NCBI GenBank assembly: GCA_016208765.1
Contig: JACQXK010000009.1
Location: forward strand, 20,819 to 84,818
DNA length: 64,000 bases
Origin: Candidatus Omnitrophota bacterium
GTDB taxonomy: Bacteria; Omnitrophota; Gorgyraeia; Gygaellales; Profunditerraquicolaceae
Direction of reading: 5' to 3'
A program made the translations under genes and the position numbers. Every line of letters begins with the position of its first letter. Position 1 is the stretch's first letter. The notes beneath the pieces were generated by a model. That model had not been told where the DNA came from, ran no database searches, and was given only the letters and a program-made list of their open reading frames with translations. Shown here piece after piece: positions 1,526 through 42,135 of this stretch.

Positions 1526-2035
1526 ATGAAAAATAAAGTTCACAGTTTACGGTTTACAGTTTACAGTATTCTTTTCGCGCTGTTAACTGTAAATTGTACA
1601 TTATACACGTTCTGTTATGCTCAAATAATTTCTAGTAGCGAGTTGATCAATAATGCCAAAGAGTATGACGGTAAGGTTGTAACTTTTGAAGGCGAGGTTA
1701 TTGGGGATGTAATGGTGCGCGGGGATTTTGCCTGGGTTAATTTAAGCGATATAAGTAATGCTATTGGTATTTGGATGCCGGCGGATTTAGCGCGCCAAAT
1801 TGCATATACCGGCAGTTATAAATCAAAAGGAGATGCCCTTGAGGTTGCCGGGACTTTTCACCGCGCCTGCCCGGAGCATGGGGGAGATTTAGATATTCAC
1901 GCGTTGTCTTTGCGAAAGACCGACGCAGGGCGGCTTATTAAAGAGAGGGTGAACCAGAGCAAGAAAGTTTATGTTTTTATTTTATTGGGGGTATTGGGGT
2001 TGGCATGGATATTAACACTCTTAAAACACAAATAG
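1526..2035 (+). CDS. hypothetical secreted/membrane-anchored protein with possible OB-fold
   Basis: 169-aa ORF with an N-terminal signal/TM and a C-terminal TM helix. The core resembles small OB-fold periplasmic proteins. Its last 31 nt overlap the pheS start, so the start and extent are uncertain. Confidence 0.4.
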   Translation: MKNKVHSLRFTVYSILFALLTVNCTLYTFCYAQIISSSELINNAKEYDGKVVTFEGEVIGDVMVRGDFAWVNLSDISNAIGIWMPADLARQIAYTGSYKSKGDALEVAGTFHRACPEHGGDLDIHALSLRKTDAGRLIKERVNQSKKVYVFILLGVLGLAWILTLLKHK

Positions 2036-3069
2036 AATCTGAAATCCTTCAGGTTAATTCTACCGAGGAGTTAGAGGCATTTCGCGCCAAATACCTGGGA
2101 AGAAAAGGCGCCTTGGCAGAACTTACCGGCATGATCCCCCAGCTGCCGGTTGAACAACGCTCCGGCCTTGGCCAGCAGGTAAATGCGCTTAAAAATAATT
2201 TACAGGCATTAATAACCGAGAGGCAAAATAAACTTTCTGGAGTTTCAGCTCAACAAAATGTTTTAGTTAATTGTGATATCGGCATGCCTGGAATTGCCCA
2301 AGATTTAGGAAGGCTGCATCCTATTACCCAGATTATTGAAGAGATAAATGCAGTTTTTGTGAATATGGGATTTGTAGTTGCCGACGGGCCGGAGGTGGAA
2401 ACCGAGTTTAATAATTTTACCGGTTTAAACATCCCGCTTGATCATCCCTCGCGTGATGCCTTTGATACTTTTTATATTAAGCCGTTGGTCAGAAATAGCG
2501 AAATACAGGCGACCGGCGACAGGCGACCGGCGACAGGTGGACTATTGTTACGTAGCCATACCTCTCCGGTGCAGGTGCGCGCAATGAAGAGCCGTAAGCC
2601 TCCGTTAGCAGTAATTGTTCCGGGAAGGGTGTATCGGCCAGATGCAGTAGATGCCAGCCATTTATTTATGTTTCATCAGATAGAAGGTTTCATGGTGGAT
2701 ACTAATGTTACTTTTTCGGGGCTTAAGGGCATTTTGGAAACTTTTGCCAAGGAAGTATTTGGGGAAGAAATCAAGATGCGTTTCCGGCCGCATTTTTTTC
2801 CTTTTACCGAGCCTTCTGCAGAAGTGGACATTTCCTGTATTATTTGCAAAGGAAAAGGTTGTTCGGTTTGCGGGAGAAAAGGCTGGTTGGAAATATTAGG
2901 CGCAGGAATGATCCATCCCAATGTATTTAAGCAGGTTGGTTATGACCCAAAAAAATATAGCGGCTTTGCTTTCGGCATGGGGATTGAAAGAATTGCCATG
3001 TTAAAATACGGGATAAATGATATCAGGTTATTTTTTGAGAACGATTTGAGATTTTTAAAACAATTTTAA
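2005..3069 (+). CDS. pheS: phenylalanine--tRNA ligase alpha subunit; carries an in-frame heptamer-repeat insertion at 2506-2540
   Basis: Class II aaRS motifs (FRPHFFPFTEPS, GxGxER-like GMGIERIAML). Position and size match PheS, and pheT follows immediately. Confidence 0.9.
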   Translation: MDINTLKTQIESEILQVNSTEELEAFRAKYLGRKGALAELTGMIPQLPVEQRSGLGQQVNALKNNLQALITERQNKLSGVSAQQNVLVNCDIGMPGIAQDLGRLHPITQIIEEINAVFVNMGFVVADGPEVETEFNNFTGLNIPLDHPSRDAFDTFYIKPLVRNSEIQATGDRRPATGGLLLRSHTSPVQVRAMKSRKPPLAVIVPGRVYRPDAVDASHLFMFHQIEGFMVDTNVTFSGLKGILETFAKEVFGEEIKMRFRPHFFPFTEPSAEVDISCIICKGKGCSVCGRKGWLEILGAGMIHPNVFKQVGYDPKKYSGFAFGMGIERIAMLKYGINDIRLFFENDLRFLKQF

Positions 3070-5107: not shown

Positions 5108-5456
5108 AAAAAGCGGTTTCTAGCCAGTTTGATTTCATATTAAAAGTATGGTATACTTTTTACAGGAAAGAGGAAAAATTTAATCCCTGCGGTGCGCGTT
5201 GGAGATTTTGATAATTATTGAACCAACATTATTATCAAGGGAGCCCAGAATTCCGCGACGGTTTTCCGTACAGGAGAGGGCACCCACCTGAAACCAACCG
5301 GTTCAGATGTCAACCCAACGGCATTTCCGCGGGGATTTTTTATTGAGGTCACAACTTATGGAGGGAGCAACGCGAACGAACATAAGTTGCAGCGAAGCGT
5401 CCGCGAATTAATACCTCTTCCGCCATATTGGGGGAAGAGGTATATTCATACCCACT

Positions 5457-7237: not shown

Positions 7238-10200
7238 GCACAATGCTTTTAATTGCGATTACCGGCGGAGTGGTGATGATAGGGTATGCGTTATATTCCA
7301 TATTCATCCCCGGCTCCGAAACAAATGAAAAGAAGACGGGGGGGAAGAATTTTTCTGCTCAGGCGGCACTTGTTGTTAATGAGCAAAAAGAGCAAAAGGC
7401 GCAAAAACTTCAGGGGCAAATGAATGTTTTAGAAAAAGAGCTGGTGCGTATTCAGGCAGAAAGCGCTCAGGAAAAGCTGGACATGGAATTGGCGAAAAAG
7501 AAAGAAGCGGAATTAGAATCAGAACTCTTGCGCAGGCAGGAATGGGTGTCTAAATCCGAAGGGATGTTGAAAAAGGTAAAAGATGAAAACCTGGAATTAA
7601 GAAAACATTTTCTGGTTAAGGAGAATCTTTTAGAGGAGGAGTTTGCCAAAAATGTTAATCTGGCTAAAGAAGCTCGTCTGCTTAATGAAAAGATTGCGGC
7701 ATTAGATAAAGAGTTAAAAGAAAAAGCAGAGCAAATTGAGATCCAGAAACATCAAATAGAAAAATACCTAAAAGAGAATAAAGAGCAGTCAGGAATTATT
7801 GCGCAACAAAAAAAGAAGGAAGAATCCAGCGAATGGGTGCCAAAGCAGGATTTTAATAAGCTTAATGAGGAGTATACTGAATTAGAAAAAGACCTGGAAG
7901 CGCGCGATGAGAAACTGCGTATTTTTGCCGAGGAGATCACGCATTTAAAACAGCAGTTAGCTGATAAAAAAATTGCTCAGCCTGTAAAAGAAGAAGTCAT
8001 TATTGAGGAAGCTCCTGTTGAAGAGGTTATCATCAAGGAGCCTGTTGTTCCTGAGGTTCAGGTTGTTGAGCCAGCTCCGGAAAAAGGAGTTTCTCTTGAA
8101 GTTGCAAATGTAGTTGAATCAAATATAGAGGAAGTAACACCGGCTCCTGTTATTGAAGAAAAACCCGCTGAAGAAATACACGAAGAGCCGGAAAAAGAAG
8201 CTAAGAAAAAAGAAGGCGAGTTGCTTCCGGCGGTTAACCTGGAAAAACTGCGTAATATCGGCATCATGGCGCATATTGATGCCGGAAAGACCACCCTTAC
8301 CGAGCGCATCCTTTTTTATACAGGTAAATCTCACAAGATCGGCGAGGTGCACGAGGGCGCTACGCAAATGGATTGGATGAAACAGGAGAGAGAGCGGGGC
8401 ATTACTATTACTGCGGCGGCAACGACTTGTTTCTGGAACAATTACCGCATAAATATTATTGATACTCCGGGGCATGTGGATTTTACAGTGGAAGTGGAAA
8501 GGTCTTTGCGTGTTTTAGACGGGGCAGTGGCAGTGTTTTGCGCTGTAGGAGGCGTGGAACCGCAATCTGAAACTGTGTGGCACCAGTCAAATAAATATAA
8601 TGTTCCCAAGATCGCATTTGTAAATAAAATGGACCGTACAGGAGCTGACTTTTATGCAGTGCTTAAAGGGATAGAACATGATTTGGGAGGAAATGTTATC
8701 CCTCTTGAGGTTCCCATTGGAAGTGAAGATAACTTCCAGGGGGTGGTGGACTTGATTGAAATGAAGGCATATTATTATATTGAAGAAACGCAGGGGAAAG
8801 ATTTTCGTATCGCAGAAATTCCCGCAGAATACCAGGAGAAGGCCAGGGAATACCGCAAGATTTTAGTAGAAAAGGCTGCGAGCTTTGATGAGGCGCTTAC
8901 TCAAAAATTCCTTGAGGCGGAAAGCTCCATAACTACTGAAGAAATTGTAGCAGCAATCCGTAAGGGAACAATTGCCAATAAAGGCGTGCCTGTTTTGTGC
9001 GGTGCGGCGTTTAAGAATAAAGGTATTCAGAAACTGCTTGATGCGGTAAATCTATTTTTGCCCTCTCCGTTAGATCTACCTGCGGTAACCGGGCACGACC
9101 CCGAGGACAAGGAAAAGGAATTTTTGCGCCGGCCGGTGATTGAAGAACCATTCTCCGGGTTGGCTTTTAAAGTTCAGGCAGATCCGCATATGGGAAAATT
9201 AGTTTATGTGCGGGTCTATTCAGGGGTGTTAAATACAGGAACGTATATTTTAAATTCTACAGTTGACAAGAGAGAGCGCGTCGGAAGGATTGTGCGCATG
9301 CATGCTAATCAAAGAGAAAATATTGATTACGCCTGCGCCGGAGATATTGTAGCGGTTGTCGGTTTATCAAATACAATTACAGGGCACACGCTTTGCGACC
9401 CGGGTTACCCGATACTTTTAGAAGCAATCCAGTTTCCTGTGCCGGTTGTGTCATTGAGTATTGCTCCAAAGAGCCGCTCGGATCAGGATAAATTAGGAAG
9501 GGGCCTTGCCAAGCTTGCCGAAGAGGACCCGACGTTCCTGGTGCAAAGCGACGAGGAAACCAAAGAAACAATTTTGACCGGGATGGGAGAGTTGCATTTG
9601 GAGATTATCGTTGACAGGCTTAAGGAGGAGTTTGGGGTAGAGGCAATTGTGGGACAGCCTAAGGTTGCTTATCGCGAGACGATTATGGAGCCTGCCCAAG
9701 GGGAGAGCAAATATATCAAGCAATCCGGAGGCCGCGGGCAGTATGGGCATGTAATGCTGCGTCTTACTCCGCAAACTGCGGGAGAAGGATTTGAATTTGT
9801 AGATAGTATCAGAGGAGGAGCGATCCCGCGGTCATTTATCCCGGCAGTAGAAAAAGGCGTGATTGAAGCAATGCAAAAGGGCGCGTTTGCAGGTTTTCCT
9901 GTTGTGGATGTAAAGGTTGATCTTTATGACGGATCATTTCACGAGGTGGACTCTTCGGAAATCGCCTTTAAGATGGCTGCGATACTCGGGTTTAAGGAAA
10001 TATTTATGCGGGCAAAACCAATTCTTTTAGAGCCCTACATGTCTCTTGAGGTGAGCACTCTTGAGGAGCATGTGAATGGTTGTGTGGGTTTTATTTGTTC
10101 TCGGCGGGGAAAGATTATTAATATTGATGTAAAGGGTAAACAGAAAGTAATTTCTGCTGAGGTGCCCCTTGCGGAAATGTTTGGTTATGTTAGCAGTTTT

Positions 10201-16831: not shown

Positions 16832-16883
16832 AGGGTAATCGGGACAGTGGGTCTGGGTCAGTTGTCAGTTGTAATTGAAATAC

Positions 16884-16955
16884 GCCCCTGTCGCCCAATG
16901 GATAGGGCACTGGCCTCCGAAGCCAGTTGTACAGGTTCGACTCCTGTCAGGGGCA
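16884..16955 (+). tRNA. tRNA-Arg (anticodon CCG)
   Basis: Acceptor GCCCCTG/CAGGGGC, anticodon stem CTGGC/GCCAG with loop CTCCGAA, T-arm GGTTCGACTCC; 72 nt, no encoded CCA. Confidence 0.75.
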
Positions 16956-20571: not shown

Positions 20572-21369
20572 GTGTTTCAGGTAAAGGCAAAAATAATTCA
20601 AAACAAACAGGTTAAAAAGAATTTCTTTCATTTGTTGGTGGATGCCCCGGAGATTGCCGGTAAAGCATTGCCCGGGCAATTTTTAAATATCAAGGTTAGC
20701 GATAATTTAGAGCCTTTGCTGCGCAGGCCGCTCGGAGTGCATCGTGTCAGTAAAAATAACATAGCAATGCTTTATGAAGTTGTCGGAAATGGAACGCAGA
20801 TTTTATCGCAAAGAAAAGCCGGGGAATATTTGGATATTATCGGCCCCTTGGGGAATGGTTTTGATTATCAGTCACCTGTCACCTGTCACCTGTCACCTGT
20901 GTTAGTTGCTGGTGGTATGGGGGTGGCTCCGTTATTATTTCTTGCGGATTTTTTAGCCCACAGTAAAAGTTTTAAAAGCTTAGTTTTTATCGGAGCCAAA
21001 ACAAAAAGCCAGTTGACTTGCGTGCAGGAATTTAGAGAATTAGGTTGCAAAGTAAAGATTGCCACCGACGACGGTTCAATGGGGTTTAAGGGCAGAGTTT
21101 CAGATCTTTTAACACATTTTCTACAGGCGACAGGAGACAGAAGACAGGCGACAATATTTAGCTGCGGCCCGCGGCCTATGCTTAAGGCAGTATCAGAAAT
21201 TTCCAGGAAGTTTAAGATTCCTGCGCAGATCTCTCTTGAAGAGCATATGAGTTGCGGCATAGGGGCTTGTATGGGGTGCGTGGTTCAAACCACAAGCGGC
21301 TACAAGAGAATTTGTAAAGAGGGCCCGGTTTTTCACGCAGATGAAATTGTCTGGGAGAGGGAGAAATGA
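20572..21369 (+). CDS. pyrK: dihydroorotate dehydrogenase (class 1B) electron-transfer subunit; contains two heptamer-repeat insertions
   Basis: FAD/NAD(P)-binding ferredoxin-reductase fold (RRPLGV, GGMGVAPL) and a C-terminal 2Fe-2S motif CGIGACMGC. It is adjacent to pyrD. Confidence 0.85.
   Translation: MFQVKAKIIQNKQVKKNFFHLLVDAPEIAGKALPGQFLNIKVSDNLEPLLRRPLGVHRVSKNNIAMLYEVVGNGTQILSQRKAGEYLDIIGPLGNGFDYQSPVTCHLSPVLVAGGMGVAPLLFLADFLAHSKSFKSLVFIGAKTKSQLTCVQEFRELGCKVKIATDDGSMGFKGRVSDLLTHFLQATGDRRQATIFSCGPRPMLKAVSEISRKFKIPAQISLEEHMSCGIGACMGCVVQTTSGYKRICKEGPVFHADEIVWEREK
20871..20901. repeat. in-frame heptamer tandem array (GTCACCT x4) inside pyrK
   Basis: gtcacctgtcacctgtcacctgtcacctgtg encodes SPVTCHLSPV; member of the CAGGCGA/TCGCCTG heptamer family. 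Confidence 0.8.
21124..21151. repeat. in-frame heptamer tandem array (CAGGCGA-CAGGAGA-CAGAAGA-CAGGCGA) inside pyrK, opposite orientation to the first
   Basis: caggcgacaggagacagaagacaggcga encodes QATGDRRQAT. Confidence 0.8.
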
Positions 21370-21725
21370 ACCAGTTGTTGTATATTGTTTTAGGAGTAGT
21401 TGCAGGGATATTTGGGGGGATGTTTGGTGTTGGAGGTGCAACAATTTTAGTGCCAGCTCTAATATATTTGTTCGGCCTTACGCAACATCAGGCTCAGGGG
21501 ACGACCCTTGCGATTATGATCCCGCCGATTGGTTTATTGGCTGCAATGAGATATTATTATAGCGGAAACGTTAAGTTGGGCATGGCAGGATTTATCTGCA
21601 TAGGTTTTCTTATTGGAGGATTATTTGGAGCGCACCTTGCCCATTTTATCCCTGATCAAGCGTTAAAGAAAATATTTGGGATATTTTTATTGGTTGTAGC
21701 AATAAGAATGATTTTTTGGAAATAA
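21366..21725 (+). CDS. small TSUP/DUF81-family membrane protein (half-size TauE/SafE-like)
   Basis: 119 aa, 4 predicted TM helices, glycine-rich GGxFGVGG signature. Confidence 0.5.
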   Translation: MNQLLYIVLGVVAGIFGGMFGVGGATILVPALIYLFGLTQHQAQGTTLAIMIPPIGLLAAMRYYYSGNVKLGMAGFICIGFLIGGLFGAHLAHFIPDQALKKIFGIFLLVVAIRMIFWK

Positions 21726-21726
21726 A

Positions 21727-22719
21727 ATGATAACTAATTTAACTGTAAATATTGGGAAGTTAAAATTAGAAAACCCTGTTATGGTTTGCTCCGGTACCTT
21801 TGGGTATGCCGGGGAGTTTAAGGATTTCTTGCCGCTTAAGAAGTTAGGGGCGATAGTAACCAAGACAATTACTTTAAATCCGCGGCAGGGGAATTTTCCT
21901 CCACGCACCTGTGAAACTCCGGCAGGAATGTTGAATTCTATTGGTTTGGAGAACCCGGGGTTGGCAGGATTTCTTAATGAAAAGCTTCCAATTTTAAAGA
22001 AAATCGGGGTTCCTGTAATTGTAAGTGTTGCTTCAGAAGGCGGCATAGCTGAATTTGTTAAGGCCGTTTCTGAATTAAACGATTTTAAAGAAGTCGCAGC
22101 TATTGAATTAAATATATCCTGTCCGAATATAGAGTCGCCAGTCACCAGTCACCTGTCGCCAGTCACCGGTCGCCAGTCACCTGTCGCCTGTCGCCGGTTA
22201 CCTGTGTTTAAGAACCGGCGGTTGATCTCCCAAGATCCACAGGCAACCTATCAACTGGTAAAACAAGTGCGCAAGGCAACGAAGAAAACTTTGATCACCA
22301 AATTATCACCTAACGTAACTGATATTTCTGAAATTGCCCTTGCCGCCGAAAATGCAGGAAGTGATGCAGTCAGCTTGATCAATACGCTAATGGGCATGAG
22401 CATTGATACAAAAACCATGAAGCCAAAAGTTGCGGCTGTTATTGCAGGATTAAGCGGGCCGGCAATCAGGCCGGTTGCTGTAAGAATGGTCTGGGAAGTC
22501 TACCAGAAAATTAAACTTCCCATAATAGGCATGGGTGGTATAATTGATACTTCCAGCGCCTTGGAATTTTTTCTGGCAGGCTCTACTGCTATTGGTGTCG
22601 GGACAGCAAATTTTATTGATCCTGCAGCTACAATCAGCATATTGCAGGGCATTAAATCTTATTTACGCAAAAACAGAATAAATAATATCGCTAAATTAAT
22701 CGGGGGATTGAAGGTATGA
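21727..22719 (+). CDS. pyrD: dihydroorotate dehydrogenase catalytic subunit (class 1B); contains a 9-unit heptamer array
   Basis: TIM-barrel DHOD motifs (NPVMVCSGTFGY, NxxSCPN, GGIxxxxxAxEFxLAGSTAIGVGT); partner of pyrK. Confidence 0.9.
   Translation: MITNLTVNIGKLKLENPVMVCSGTFGYAGEFKDFLPLKKLGAIVTKTITLNPRQGNFPPRTCETPAGMLNSIGLENPGLAGFLNEKLPILKKIGVPVIVSVASEGGIAEFVKAVSELNDFKEVAAIELNISCPNIESPVTSHLSPVTGRQSPVACRRLPVFKNRRLISQDPQATYQLVKQVRKATKKTLITKLSPNVTDISEIALAAENAGSDAVSLINTLMGMSIDTKTMKPKVAAVIAGLSGPAIRPVAVRMVWEVYQKIKLPIIGMGGIIDTSSALEFFLAGSTAIGVGTANFIDPAATISILQGIKSYLRKNRINNIAKLIGGLKV
22137..22206. repeat. in-frame heptamer tandem array (9-10 units GTCRCCN) inside pyrD
   Basis: gtcaccagtcacctgtcgccagtcaccggtcgccagtcacctgtcgcctgtcgccggttacctgtg encodes SPVTSHLSPVTGRQSPVACRRLPV between conserved PyrD blocks. 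Confidence 0.85.
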
Positions 22720-23381
22720 GCAGTGCCTCGCAAATCATCCTTGCTTTGGATGTGGATAACTTACAGGCAGCAAAGAATTTTGTGGATAAGCTGTATCCGC
22801 AAATAAAGATTTTTAAAATCGGTATCCAGCTTTTTACTTCCTGTGGCAGGGAGATTGTTGACTACATTAATAATAAAGGCGCAGAAGTTTTCCTGGACCT
22901 GAAATTTTTTGATATTCCTAATACCGTTGCCGGAGCTGTGCGAGAGGCAGTGCGCCTTAAGGTAAAAATGCTTACTATGCATATCTTGGGCGACGAGGAA
23001 ATGCTTAAGGCGGCAGTTAGCGCCAGAAACGATGAAGCTGGAACTTTAAAAATAAATAAACCGCTTTTAATAGGGGTTACTGTTTTAACCAGTAAAGACA
23101 CGGCTTCAAGTGACGTATTGACATTGGCTAAAATCGGCATTGAGTGCGGGCTTGATGGAGTGGTTTGTTCTGCCCGGGAGGCAGGATTGCTGCGCAAGGA
23201 AATCAAAAAAAGCTTTGTAATTGTTACTCCGGGGATAAGGCAGGCGAATACCGCTTCAGACGACCAGAAAAGAACCACGACAGTCCAGGAAGCGATTGCT
23301 TCCGGAAGCGACTTTCTTGTTGTGGGCCGCCCAATATTAAAAGCAGACGACCCGTTAAGAGCTGCAAAAGAGTTGGTGTAA
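22716..23381 (+). CDS. pyrF: orotidine 5'-phosphate decarboxylase
   Basis: LALDV...KIGIQLF, DLKFFDIPNTV and a C-terminal LVVGRPI phosphate-binding motif. Confidence 0.85.
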   Translation: MSSASQIILALDVDNLQAAKNFVDKLYPQIKIFKIGIQLFTSCGREIVDYINNKGAEVFLDLKFFDIPNTVAGAVREAVRLKVKMLTMHILGDEEMLKAAVSARNDEAGTLKINKPLLIGVTVLTSKDTASSDVLTLAKIGIECGLDGVVCSAREAGLLRKEIKKSFVIVTPGIRQANTASDDQKRTTTVQEAIASGSDFLVVGRPILKADDPLRAAKELV

Positions 23382-40862: not shown

Positions 40863-41066
40863 ATGGCCAAAGTTGTTATAAATAAAGAAAAGTGCAAGGG
40901 TTGTTTGTTATGTGTTAGTTTCTGTCCGAAAGGCTTATTGATTGTTGATACGGAGTTGAATACTAAAGGCATCAGGCCGGTAAAATTAAAAGAAGCAGCT
41001 GGATTTATTGGTTGTGCCCAGTGTGCGGTGATTTGCCCGGACTGCTGTATTGAAATTCATGAATAA
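40863..41066 (+). CDS. 4Fe-4S ferredoxin, delta subunit of 2-oxoacid:ferredoxin oxidoreductase
   Basis: Two CxxCxxCxxxCP motifs in 67 aa, immediately upstream of the alpha/beta/gamma subunits. Confidence 0.7.
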   Translation: MAKVVINKEKCKGCLLCVSFCPKGLLIVDTELNTKGIRPVKLKEAAGFIGCAQCAVICPDCCIEIHE

Positions 41067-42135
41067 GAAAATTTTGATGACAGGGAATGAAGCTTTTGCT
41101 AAAGGCGCTTTAGATGCAGGGTGCCGTTTTTATGCCGGCTATCCGATTACCCCGCAAAATGAGCTGCCTGCATATATGGCGTTAAATATGCCGCAGGTTG
41201 GGGGAGTGTTTATTCAGGCTGAGTCGGAGATCGCTGCAATTAATATGGTTTTTGGCGCTTCAGCCGCAGGAGCAAGGTCAATGACTTCTTCTTCAAGCCC
41301 GGGGATAAGCCTTAAGCAGGAAGGGATTTCTTATTTAGCAGGGGCAGAATTACCGTCGGTAATTATTAATGTCATGCGCGCAGGCCCTGGCTTAGGGAAT
41401 ATCTGGCCGTCGCAGTCTGATTATTTTCAGGCCACACGCAGCGCAGGGCACGGGGATAGCCACTGTATTGTCCTAGCGCCTTCTGCGGTGCAGGAGTCAT
41501 ATGATATTATGACGCTGGCGTTTGACCTGGCGGATAAATATCGTAATCCTGTAATGATTATGGGTGATGGTTTGTTGGGGCAGATGATGGAACCTGTTTT
41601 GGCAACTAACCAACGACAGGCGACAGGAGACAGGCGACAGGCGACTAAACCATGGGCAGTAACAGGATGTAAAGGAAGGAAACGCAACATTACCAAATCT
41701 TTTTACTTGCGGGAAGGCGATCTTGAGCAATTTAATATTTTATTACAGAAAAAATACCAAGAAATCCAGGAAAAAGAAGAGCGTTATGAAGGTTTATTTT
41801 TAGAAGATGCGGAATTAGTTTTGGTTGGGTACGGGACAATGTCTAGAATTGCCAAGTCGGCAATGTATAGATTGCGCGAAGAAAATTATAAGATAGGATT
41901 GATCCGGCCAATTACGCTTTGGCCTTTTCCAAAAAAGGTTTTTGAGAGTATGGGGAAAGCTATTTTCCTAGCCGTAGAAATGTCTTATGGGCAGATGGTT
42001 GAAGATGTTAAATTGGCGCTTAATTGCCGTTTTCCTGTGGAATTTCTTGGCCGTTCCGGCGGAGGGGTTGTATCTGAAGAAGATATAATTAATAAAGTGA
42101 AAGGCCTCATAAATAAAACAAACCGAGATGAATAA
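41050..42135 (+). CDS. 2-oxoacid:ferredoxin oxidoreductase alpha subunit; contains an in-frame heptamer array
   Basis: POR/KOR alpha-subunit N-terminal domain (GNEAFAKGALDAGCRFYAGYPITP) and transketolase-C-like region. Confidence 0.8.
   Translation: MKFMNKKILMTGNEAFAKGALDAGCRFYAGYPITPQNELPAYMALNMPQVGGVFIQAESEIAAINMVFGASAAGARSMTSSSSPGISLKQEGISYLAGAELPSVIINVMRAGPGLGNIWPSQSDYFQATRSAGHGDSHCIVLAPSAVQESYDIMTLAFDLADKYRNPVMIMGDGLLGQMMEPVLATNQRQATGDRRQATKPWAVTGCKGRKRNITKSFYLREGDLEQFNILLQKKYQEIQEKEERYEGLFLEDAELVLVGYGTMSRIAKSAMYRLREENYKIGLIRPITLWPFPKKVFESMGKAIFLAVEMSYGQMVEDVKLALNCRFPVEFLGRSGGGVVSEEDIINKVKGLINKTNRDE
41611..41644. repeat. in-frame heptamer tandem array inside the OFOR alpha gene
   Basis: caacgacaggcgacaggagacaggcgacaggcga encodes QRQATGDRRQAT. 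Confidence 0.8.

Follow-up and report, generated by a model that had tools for sequence, protein, structure and literature searches.

The stretch of DNA analyzed here, referred to as the window, comprises 64,000 nucleotides of contig JACQXK010000009.1 from an assembled genome of a Candidatus Omnitrophota bacterium (GCA_016208765.1). It contains pyrK, the gene for the electron-transfer subunit of dihydroorotate dehydrogenase B, within which two tandem arrays of a 7-nt unit are translated as part of the protein. The encoded PyrK is 100% identical to a protein listed at NCBI as 'Candidatus Omnitrophica bacterium', and its best matches in the PDB are 5KSW_B and 1EP3_B, both of which are PyrK of Lactococcus. 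An original prediction, made from the letters alone, held that the two arrays belong to one element family that had inserted twice, once on each strand, and that both copies had remained in frame. We called tandem arrays with Tandem Repeats Finder (TRF); for both pyrK arrays the TRF calls and our reading of the sequence agreed with the predicted positions and translations. All five arrays that had been attributed to the window were found, namely the two in pyrK and one each in pheS, in pyrD and in the gene for the alpha subunit of a 2-oxoacid:ferredoxin oxidoreductase (OFOR) (Table 1). By TRF, all five have a period of 7 and are direct tandem repeats of 28-73 nt, with unit numbers of 4.3, 4.4, 4.6, 4.7 and, in one array, 10. 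Like SPVTCHLSPV and QATGDRRQAT, the peptide SPVTSHLSPVTGR is array-encoded.

Table 1. Arrays and other features of the window, with copies of the palindrome CCTGCCTGNCCGGCAGGCAGG at other Omnitrophota loci (L-numbers; positions are those of the locus named).
Feature	Position	Strand	Units, product and remarks
T-rich heptamer array	1537-1567; inverted partner 1580-1608	+	CAGTTTA x4 (TRF); fold of -21 kcal/mol
pheS array	2505-2537	-	alternating GTCGCCG/GTCGCCT, 14-nt period, 100% matches; product IQATGDRRPATGG
6S RNA	5181-5339		Rfam RF00013, 65.5 bits
GTCAGTT repeat	16857-16872		x2.3; immediately upstream of the tRNA at 16884-16955
pyrK	20572-21369	+	265-aa ORF; Pfam PF10418 and PF00175; hosts two arrays
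Array 1 (pyrK site 1)	20871-20900	+	GTCACCT x4.3, 100% matches; product S101-V110, SPVTCHLSPV
Array 2 (pyrK site 2)	21123-21153 (TRF)	family unit on -	coding-strand ACAGGCG x4.4, 83% matches; coding-strand units CAGGCGA-CAGGAGA-CAGAAGA-CAGGCGA at 21124-21151; minus-strand units GTCGCCT/GTCTCCT/GTCTTCT/GTCGCCT; product Q185-T194, QATGDRRQAT
TauE-like membrane protein gene	21366-21725		119 aa; between pyrK and pyrD
pyrD array	22133-22205	+	10 units GTCRCCN, higher-order periods of 14 and 28 nt; product SPVTSHLSPVTGRQSPVACRRLPV
pyrF	22716-23381		intact, downstream of pyrD
OFOR alpha array	41614-41645 (gene 41050-42135)	-	GTCGCCT-type x4.6; product NQRQATGDRRQATK
CCTGCCTGNCCGGCAGGCAGG copies within heptamer arrays (pyrK, carB, other genes)	L018 10401-10421 and 10600-10624; L044 18095-18115; L008 4196-4216; L209 8538-8558

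Rotated, the unit of array 2 reads AGGCGAC, which is one base off AGGTGAC, the reverse complement of the array 1 unit GTCACCT. Read on the GTC strand, the units of these five arrays lie within one mismatch of GTCGCCT, which bears out the claim that the two pyrK arrays represent one family in opposite orientations; relative to their host genes, two of the five arrays run forward and three in reverse. In another Omnitrophota genome, L211, pheS and pheT contain the same combination, with GTCACC as the forward and GGCGAC as the reverse form. Period-7 arrays of at least three units number five in the window, compared to a mean of 0.105 in 200 dinucleotide-preserving shuffles, and arrays of at least four units number three, compared to none in the shuffles. 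The two-unit pattern GTCRCCNGTCRCC, with one mismatch allowed, matched 19 times where 0.22 matches were expected, and all 19 matches fell inside the five arrays. Since the window is 92% coding, the location of all five arrays in genes is uninformative when taken alone. The probability that the arrays are chance similarities or an assembly artefact is practically nil: the shuffle tests and the GTCRCCNGTCRCC counts exclude chance, and the general point that repeats can be misassembled is outweighed by the recurrence of the same array sites in orthologues, always in frame, in dozens of independent assemblies (NCBI, JGI, ENA and Logan).

We compared the window with three syntenic loci, 80 species-representative Omnitrophota loci and several pairs of close relatives. 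L-numbers denote the Omnitrophota loci compared, except that L088-L167 are metagenome contigs. In 1.25 Mb of Omnitrophota DNA, 99 period-7 arrays were counted, 91 of which lie inside long ORFs, compared to at most 12 arrays each for periods 5, 6, 8 and 9. When an array was defined by a segment with at least 19 of 21 period-7 matches, 38 of the 88 Omnitrophota pyrK genes contained near-perfect period-7 arrays, and no arrays of period 5, 6 or 9 were found within these 88 genes. The arrays occupy the position of array 1 (site 1) in 19 genes, that of array 2 (site 2) in 24, a third loop after the FLAEKL helix (site 3) in 14, and other positions in 2. This distribution does not sustain the view that the arrays were inserted into the pyrK gene of the window as two separate recent events. 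Nor does the closest relative, L001, fit a fresh insertion at site 2: its degenerate array at that site keeps the register of the window array and shares the core GCGA (GCGACAG in the window, GCGATTA in L001). We therefore infer that both pyrK arrays are inherited array loci in orthologous loops. The units themselves vary widely between genomes (for example CTATCCG, CTATCGA, ATTACCG, AAATCCG, CATTAGC and AAAACGC), and most arrays are near-perfect and 29-36 nt long, the lengths in pyrK peaking at 31-33 nt. At loci L004-L083, the number of period-7 arrays per kb is about 35 times higher in pyrK than in the 10-kb flanks around it, and the other arrays at these loci lie mostly in carB, pyrD and pyrF.

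The arrays map to inter-domain linkers or loops, as judged by alignment to solved homologues and by the secondary structure of a model. An AlphaFold model of PyrK had a pLDDT of 70, a TM-score of 0.44 to PyrK structures and a wrong domain arrangement, and only its secondary structure was used. Site 1 is the linker between the FAD and NAD domains together with the start of strand beta-1, whereas site 2 takes in the last part of the helix 176-187, a loop and the first part of the strand 193-198, before the CGP motif. The original prediction had placed both arrays between the conserved FAD/NAD-binding and 2Fe-2S regions, and had proposed mapping them on PyrK. The mapping, based on alignment plus model secondary structure, agrees for site 1 inasmuch as it lies between the FAD and NAD domains, but site 2 is a helix-to-strand loop within the NAD-binding domain, upstream of the 2Fe-2S region. 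Native sequence of equivalent length at both sites in homologues would, by the original prediction's own standard, speak against insertion, and this is partly the case: the PyrK proteins of the window and of Lactococcus (1EP3_B, 5KSW_B) align without a gap at site 1, whereas at site 2 the Lactococcus protein is 5 aa shorter. In pyrD, the array directly follows the NISCPNIE active-site motif and the protein is about 24 aa longer than PyrD of Lactococcus; the loop at this site is expanded in about 40% of Omnitrophota pyrD genes. The pheS array lies between DTFYI and LLLRSHTSP, within an 18-aa insertion relative to PheS of P. aeruginosa, while the OFOR array lies in a variable linker between domains I and II.

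The lengths of the loops that carry arrays fall into classes 7 aa apart, which corresponds to 21 nt or three units. At pyrK site 3, 25 genes have a loop of 8 aa and 19 genes one of 15 aa, and only the longer forms contain arrays; the classes at site 2 are 15-17, 22-24, 29-30 and 36 aa, and those of the pyrD loop are 5-6, 12-14 and 24-27 aa. The 7-aa spacing fits site 1 less well, where the modes are 8 and 12 aa. In one pair of close relatives, the first has GAACTNN x5 at site 3 and the second a single GAAGTCA, a difference of exactly 21 nt. The usual four-unit array thus equals one unit plus 21 nt, so that the reading frame is kept. The PheS site is variable among 120 Omnitrophota PheS proteins, with a base state of 7 aa in 44 of them and expanded classes of up to 36 aa. 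Many of the expanded PheS loops are adjacent inverted array pairs, laid out between DTFY and LLRSHTS as a forward arm, a short A-rich loop and a reverse arm (P0137, P0237, P0147, P0172 and others). In L211, for instance, pheS contains (AGTCACC)x4-AAAAAC-(AGGCGAC)x3.5 at 8550-8611, translated SPVTSHQSPV-KT-GDRRQATG, so that this one pair yields the same two peptides as sites 1 and 2 of the window pyrK. In pheT of the same genome (9964-10133) the two members of the GTCACC/GGCGAC pair are 113 nt apart.

The pyrK arrays are translated, and translation acts as a strong filter on their units and orientation. Since successive copies of a 7-mer are read in each of the three frames in turn, a stop triplet anywhere in the circular unit would be encountered; no array unit yields a stop codon in any frame. 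GTCACC and GTCGCC both occur in forward arrays, where 9 of 14 units have A at position 4, whereas none of the 13 units in reverse arrays has A there (hypergeometric p = 4e-4 relative to forward arrays). Reverse arrays read GGCGAC and never GGTGAC because the latter would give an in-frame TGA, and L211 obeys the same rule in pheS and pheT, with GTCACC in the forward arms and GGCGAC in the reverse arms. All 88 pyrK, 76 pyrD and 120 PheS sequences examined are intact. Selection against frame disruption, which the original prediction had also proposed, is thus strongly supported by the 88 intact pyrK orthologues and by the bias at position 4. The composition of the units also suits the local protein environment. 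In the peptides that arrays encode in the 88 pyrK genes, T, R, S, H, Y and P are over-represented and F, W, M and G under-represented, and 30% of the residues are hydrophobic compared to 43% outside the arrays. The coding strand of the arrays is A/C-rich (A 33%, C 29%, G 18%). Conversely, the T-rich CAGTTTA units described below encode a hydrophobic N-terminus.

Several observations concern the turnover of arrays. Growth in place is visible as a perfect 14-nt super-period in the pheS array and as 14- and 28-nt super-periods in the pyrD array (TRF), and units at site 2 form a single-step series (CTATCGA, CCATCGA, CTGTCGA, CTGTCAA). Unit pairs with at most one mismatch make up 20% of pairs within a genome compared to 4.5% between genomes, a difference that none of 2000 permutations matched; between genomes, they make up 8.8% of pairs from the same site and 2.1% of pairs from different sites. 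One and the same unit can abut conserved flanks in different genes of one genome, as at three loci of L020 and two pairs of loci of L012. The prediction had suggested a comparison of all five arrays for target-site duplications or flanking nucleotides in common. Arrays of one family, when compared, had no shared flanks, terminal repeats or target-site duplications beyond the array itself.

Recombination is visible between closely related strains. Outside two patches that have sites 1 and 2 at their centres, the pyrK genes of L084 and L085 share about 99% identity, and those of L086 and L087 differ in one patch of about 95 nt at site 3. Such patches include about 30 nt of flanking sequence in which the differences are mostly synonymous, which points to import from a diverged functional allele. 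Identical arrays also occur in more distant genomes: L007, L014 and L069 share a 36-nt site-2 array, including one imperfect unit, in genes that are only 53-70% identical, and L007 and L014 pyrK form a mosaic whose 5' halves are about 60-70% identical and whose 3' halves are about 90% identical. L208 and L209 have an ATTACCG x5 array that is 100% conserved between them, with scattered mismatches in its flanks and 80% identity over the whole gene alignment. Two arrays of the window are net gains relative to the closest relatives. The window pheS is 48 nt longer than that of L210 (about 85% aa identity), an array-less allele in which we looked for a GTCRCC seed and saw none, and its pyrD is 63 nt longer than that of L001. 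The active mechanism that had been predicted is therefore upheld to the extent that a process of some kind is ongoing, as indicated by the perfect arrays, the turnover of alleles between near-identical strains and the gains in pheS and pyrD.

On these grounds we favor the explanation that the pyrK arrays are part of a phylum-wide and genome-wide class of short heptanucleotide arrays that arise by a slippage-like process, are reshaped by recombination and pass a translational filter. We assign a probability of roughly 0.6 to this explanation as a whole, including the view that arrays of this class typically have 4-5 units (28-35 nt), are in frame and translated, and lie in permissive loops or linkers, presumably exposed at the surface, of ordinary Omnitrophota enzymes. 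Birth would occur by iterative slippage-like DNA synthesis with an intrinsic 7-nt register and a genome-specific preference for a heptamer; it would act on either strand and would probably be the same process as that behind the '4 x heptamer' repeats of Geobacter, Xanthomonas and cyanobacteria. A seed plus three further units would give the typical four-unit array with the frame kept. Maintenance, parts of which are seen directly in the comparisons above, would involve multi-unit duplication (14 and 28 nt), homogenisation of units that vary by a single base, and short-patch recombination between lineages, while translation removes units with stops in the orientation-dependent way seen at position 4. 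The encoded peptides would be tolerated linkers rather than functional modules.

There are also points that weigh against this explanation. Its birth step is putative. Simple replication slippage predicts neither a period of 7 over 6 or 9 in coding DNA nor the presence of one unit at unrelated loci of a genome, which makes an enzyme-driven or trans-templated origin a serious rival. The seedless pheS allele of L210 looks more like the import of family sequence than like local amplification, and identical arrays in distant species could mean a constraint at the DNA level, i.e. a function. Moreover, the excess of arrays in pyrK over its flanks is explained only by an assumed tolerance of its loops, and the structural mapping leans mainly on sequence alignment to 1EP3_B and 5KSW_B, the model being mediocre.

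The view taken by the original prediction, that the arrays are a mobile element family, would have a transposase, recombinase, nickase or reverse transcriptase insert preformed or trans-templated heptamer arrays in either orientation, with selection purging the out-of-frame copies. It would account for five arrays of one family in four unrelated genes and both orientations, for units that are common far more often within than between genomes, for the identical units that abut conserved flanks in different genes of L020 and of L012, for the gains in pheS (with no visible seed) and pyrD, and for identical arrays in distant species; a probably mobile 21-nt palindrome with nested copies, described below, moreover targets arrays. 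We nonetheless consider a mobile element family unlikely. The arrays have none of the terminal inverted repeats, target-site duplications or common flanks of such a family, the pyrK arrays occupy the same loops throughout the phylum with units one base apart and in a shared register, the 14- and 28-nt super-periods indicate growth in place, and the strain patches carry diverged homologous flanks, which is a sign of recombination and not of insertion. No transposase or reverse transcriptase turned up near the arrays, although no search for them was made and the ORFs of the window were not systematically annotated. A related model of insertion and excision footprints, in which 7-bp target duplications accumulate, found no supporting evidence. 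A further and rather speculative possibility, to which we give little credence, is an undescribed enzyme-driven process in which a genome-specific heptamer is recognised on either strand and amplified locally to about four copies, by exactly 21 nt, with the products spread by short-patch recombination; it would operate in Omnitrophota and perhaps in Geobacter, Xanthomonas and heterocystous cyanobacteria. If such a process exists, it would be an intrinsically frame-preserving 'loop-writing' mutagenesis that repeatedly rewrites surface loops of conserved enzymes, and the array-targeting palindrome may belong to the same system.

It is improbable that the arrays are functional cis-elements kept at the level of the nucleic acid, whether as an RNA or DNA stem between the two pyrK arrays, as binding sites of a regulator or as sites of ribosome pausing at domain boundaries. 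The minimum-free-energy fold of 20851-21170 does pair both pyrK arrays, with a z-score of -1.56 in sense and -3.68 in antisense, in which a G-U pair takes the place of the mismatch. Arrays that adjoin each other as inverted pairs are seen in pheS of many lineages (more than 40), including that of L211, and in pyrK and pyrD of L003, arrays are sometimes better conserved than their flanks, and a regulatory role was proposed for the Geobacter repeats by the authors of PMC2700814. However, by inspection of the unit lists, complementarity between sites 1 and 2 is present only in the window among about 14 genomes with arrays at both sites, and L024 has an identical unit in identical orientation at both pyrK sites. 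An RNA stem between the pyrK arrays is predicted in the window, but the complementarity is absent from roughly 13 other genomes with both sites, and we rejected the stem as a conserved feature. The presence of several unrelated units per genome does not fit a single binding specificity, an Rfam search gave no match at the arrays, and both stop avoidance and amino-acid composition indicate selection at the protein level. The idea that the arrays are contingency loci, at which the gain or loss of a single unit by slippage would change the frame and turn the gene off or on, follows from 7 nt not being a multiple of 3, and heptanucleotide phase-variable tracts occur in Haemophilus and E. coli. We rejected phase variation as very improbable, since the hosts are essential housekeeping genes (pheS, pyrK, pyrD), all of their sequences examined are intact, the tracts are short (about 4 units) and the length differences seen are multiples of 3 nt.

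The arrays resemble several known repeats, and a search of the literature library used found no paper linking Omnitrophota with heptamer repeats. With the dispersed '4 x 7' repeats they have in common a 7-nt head-to-tail unit, 4-5 units per array and the presence of one unit at many loci on both strands; in the 64-kb window, to which this count refers, there are five GTCRCCN loci, two forward and three reverse. According to Aklujkar et al. (2009, PMC2700814), the Gmet_H4 repeat of Geobacter metallireducens consists of GGGACCG x4 at 49 loci, within and between genes and in some cases with two or more in a single gene, and the same genome has MTYCTGA x5 at 15 loci. These are, like ours, tandem 7-nt units in 4-5 copies, with one unit at many dispersed loci of a genome; unlike ours, they are GC-rich, were described from a single genome and were read as regulatory RNA or binding sites, and the accessible portion of that paper reports no conservation at orthologous sites, no analysis of frames or stops and no turnover of units between species. 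In Omnitrophota, many unit families coexist and the arrays lie mostly inside genes. For the GGGNATC repeats of Xanthomonas and Nostoc, Rehm et al. (2015, PMC4692102) ascribe the preference for four units to G-quadruplex formation and describe mostly non-coding locations; they also cite the short tandemly repeated repetitive (STRR) sequences of cyanobacteria (Mazel et al. 1990), a further case of dispersed four-unit heptanucleotide repeats. Some of the Xanthomonas and Nostoc repeats are paired as inverted repeats, as in Omnitrophota, but those repeats have G-rich units and are over-represented in non-coding DNA, with under-representation on the coding strand of ORFs. The features of this subclass (non-coding preference, G-rich units, G-quadruplex potential) do not apply to the Omnitrophota arrays: their coding strand is A/C-rich, long ORFs contain 91 of the 99, and most are unable to form G-quadruplexes.

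The amino-acid tandem repeats (aaTRs) of Borgs are near-perfect in-ORF tandem repeats on an archaeal extrachromosomal element, for which slippage was proposed (Schoelmerich et al. 2023, PMC9879509). Like the arrays studied here, they encode short disordered or hydrophilic peptide repeats, evolve fast, have partial repeats at their flanks and occur as different repeats at similar places of homologous proteins; unlike them, they have in-ORF units divisible by three, are essentially locus-unique and often lie in extracellular proteins (PMC9879509). The Omnitrophota unit of 7 nt is neither divisible by three nor unique to a locus; it keeps the frame only through the total length of the array, is common to several loci and occurs in chromosomal housekeeping enzymes of bacteria. 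The arrays also lack the frame-switching in a dispensable, usually surface-related gene that characterizes phase-variable simple sequence repeats, as well as the terminal inverted repeats, target-site duplications and shared flanks of a transposable element or miniature inverted-repeat transposable element; flanking direct repeats are inseparable from the periodicity of the array. The Rickettsia palindromic elements (RPE) reportedly described by Ogata et al. in 2000 are said to be selfish DNA of about 100-150 bp that lies in frame in protein-coding genes. They would thus resemble the arrays as repeated DNA tolerated in frame in essential genes at positions that spare the fold, and the arrays do lie, by alignment, in frame at permissive loop positions; they would differ in being palindromes of about 100-150 bp and not tandem heptamers. 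The arrays are therefore of the dispersed-heptamer class, but mostly in genes, translated, located at orthologous sites with turnover of their units, and not explicable by G-quadruplexes.

Arrays of GTCRCCN type exist beyond Omnitrophota. A metagenome scan for GTCRCCN x4, for which no control pattern was run and which thus gives no measure of enrichment, returned at least 80 loci (L088-L167), mostly on high-GC soil and sediment contigs unrelated to Omnitrophota, and suggests that such arrays are widespread. Among the metagenome matches listed are perfect GTCRCCN arrays of 4 to more than 25 units, often within long ORFs.

The '4 x 7' heptanucleotide repeats have been known for more than 30 years in several bacterial phyla with neither a mechanism nor a function, and the G-quadruplex, the sole explanation offered for the preference for four units, cannot apply to the A/C-rich Omnitrophota arrays. 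What is new in the present data is that four units equal a seed plus 21 nt, so that the frame is kept and coding DNA can be colonised, that the same loops of the same proteins are occupied in orthologues across the phylum while the unit sequence turns over, and that translation visibly filters which units persist in which orientation. Hundreds of metagenome-assembled genomes offer a natural comparative system for the origin of heptamer repeats, and the extent to which arbitrary sequence is tolerated in the linkers of PyrK, PyrD and PheS can be read from the arrays. In practical terms, marker genes with such arrays look more diverged than they are and become recombination mosaics.

These genomes contain a second small dispersed element, the GC-rich palindrome CCTGCCTGNCCGGCAGGCAGG of 21 nt. 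Copies lie within heptamer arrays (Table 1), one copy is nested in another, and the palindrome yields 7-aa inserts such as PACRTGR and PCLSGRQ, which were found also in the PyrK proteins P0040, P0041, P0011 and P0058. Further copies are located just upstream of ribosome-binding sites (L002 4792, L064 5001, L022 10780). Exact 7-nt repeats flank the palindrome, but as target-site duplications these are uninformative, being trivial in a periodic array. The palindrome is probably a tiny mobile element that targets the arrays and, going by what is said of RPE, it is their nearer analogue in these genomes than the arrays are. The small dispersed repeats (SDRs) of cyanobacteria, as quoted in PMC4390886 from Elhai et al. 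(2008), are hairpin-forming mobile repeats of 21-27 nt with precise insertion into other short repeats, as of SDR5 into HIP1. The likeness concerns the palindrome, with its copies inside arrays and its nested copies, and not the heptamer arrays themselves. Some SDRs may also lie in heptameric repeats.

The TauE-like gene between pyrK and pyrD is kept at that position in L001, L003 and L086, and in L002, L003 and L209 a glycosyltransferase gene takes its place or stands beside it. A T-rich heptamer family is present elsewhere in the window as the CAGTTTA pair at 1537-1608. This pair forms a hairpin directly after the stop codon of a TrkH-like gene and encodes the hydrophobic N-terminus of the ORF at 1526-2035. 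At the same place L210, a syntenic relative, has GTTTAAT x3 (1398-1422), which is also T-rich but a different heptamer.

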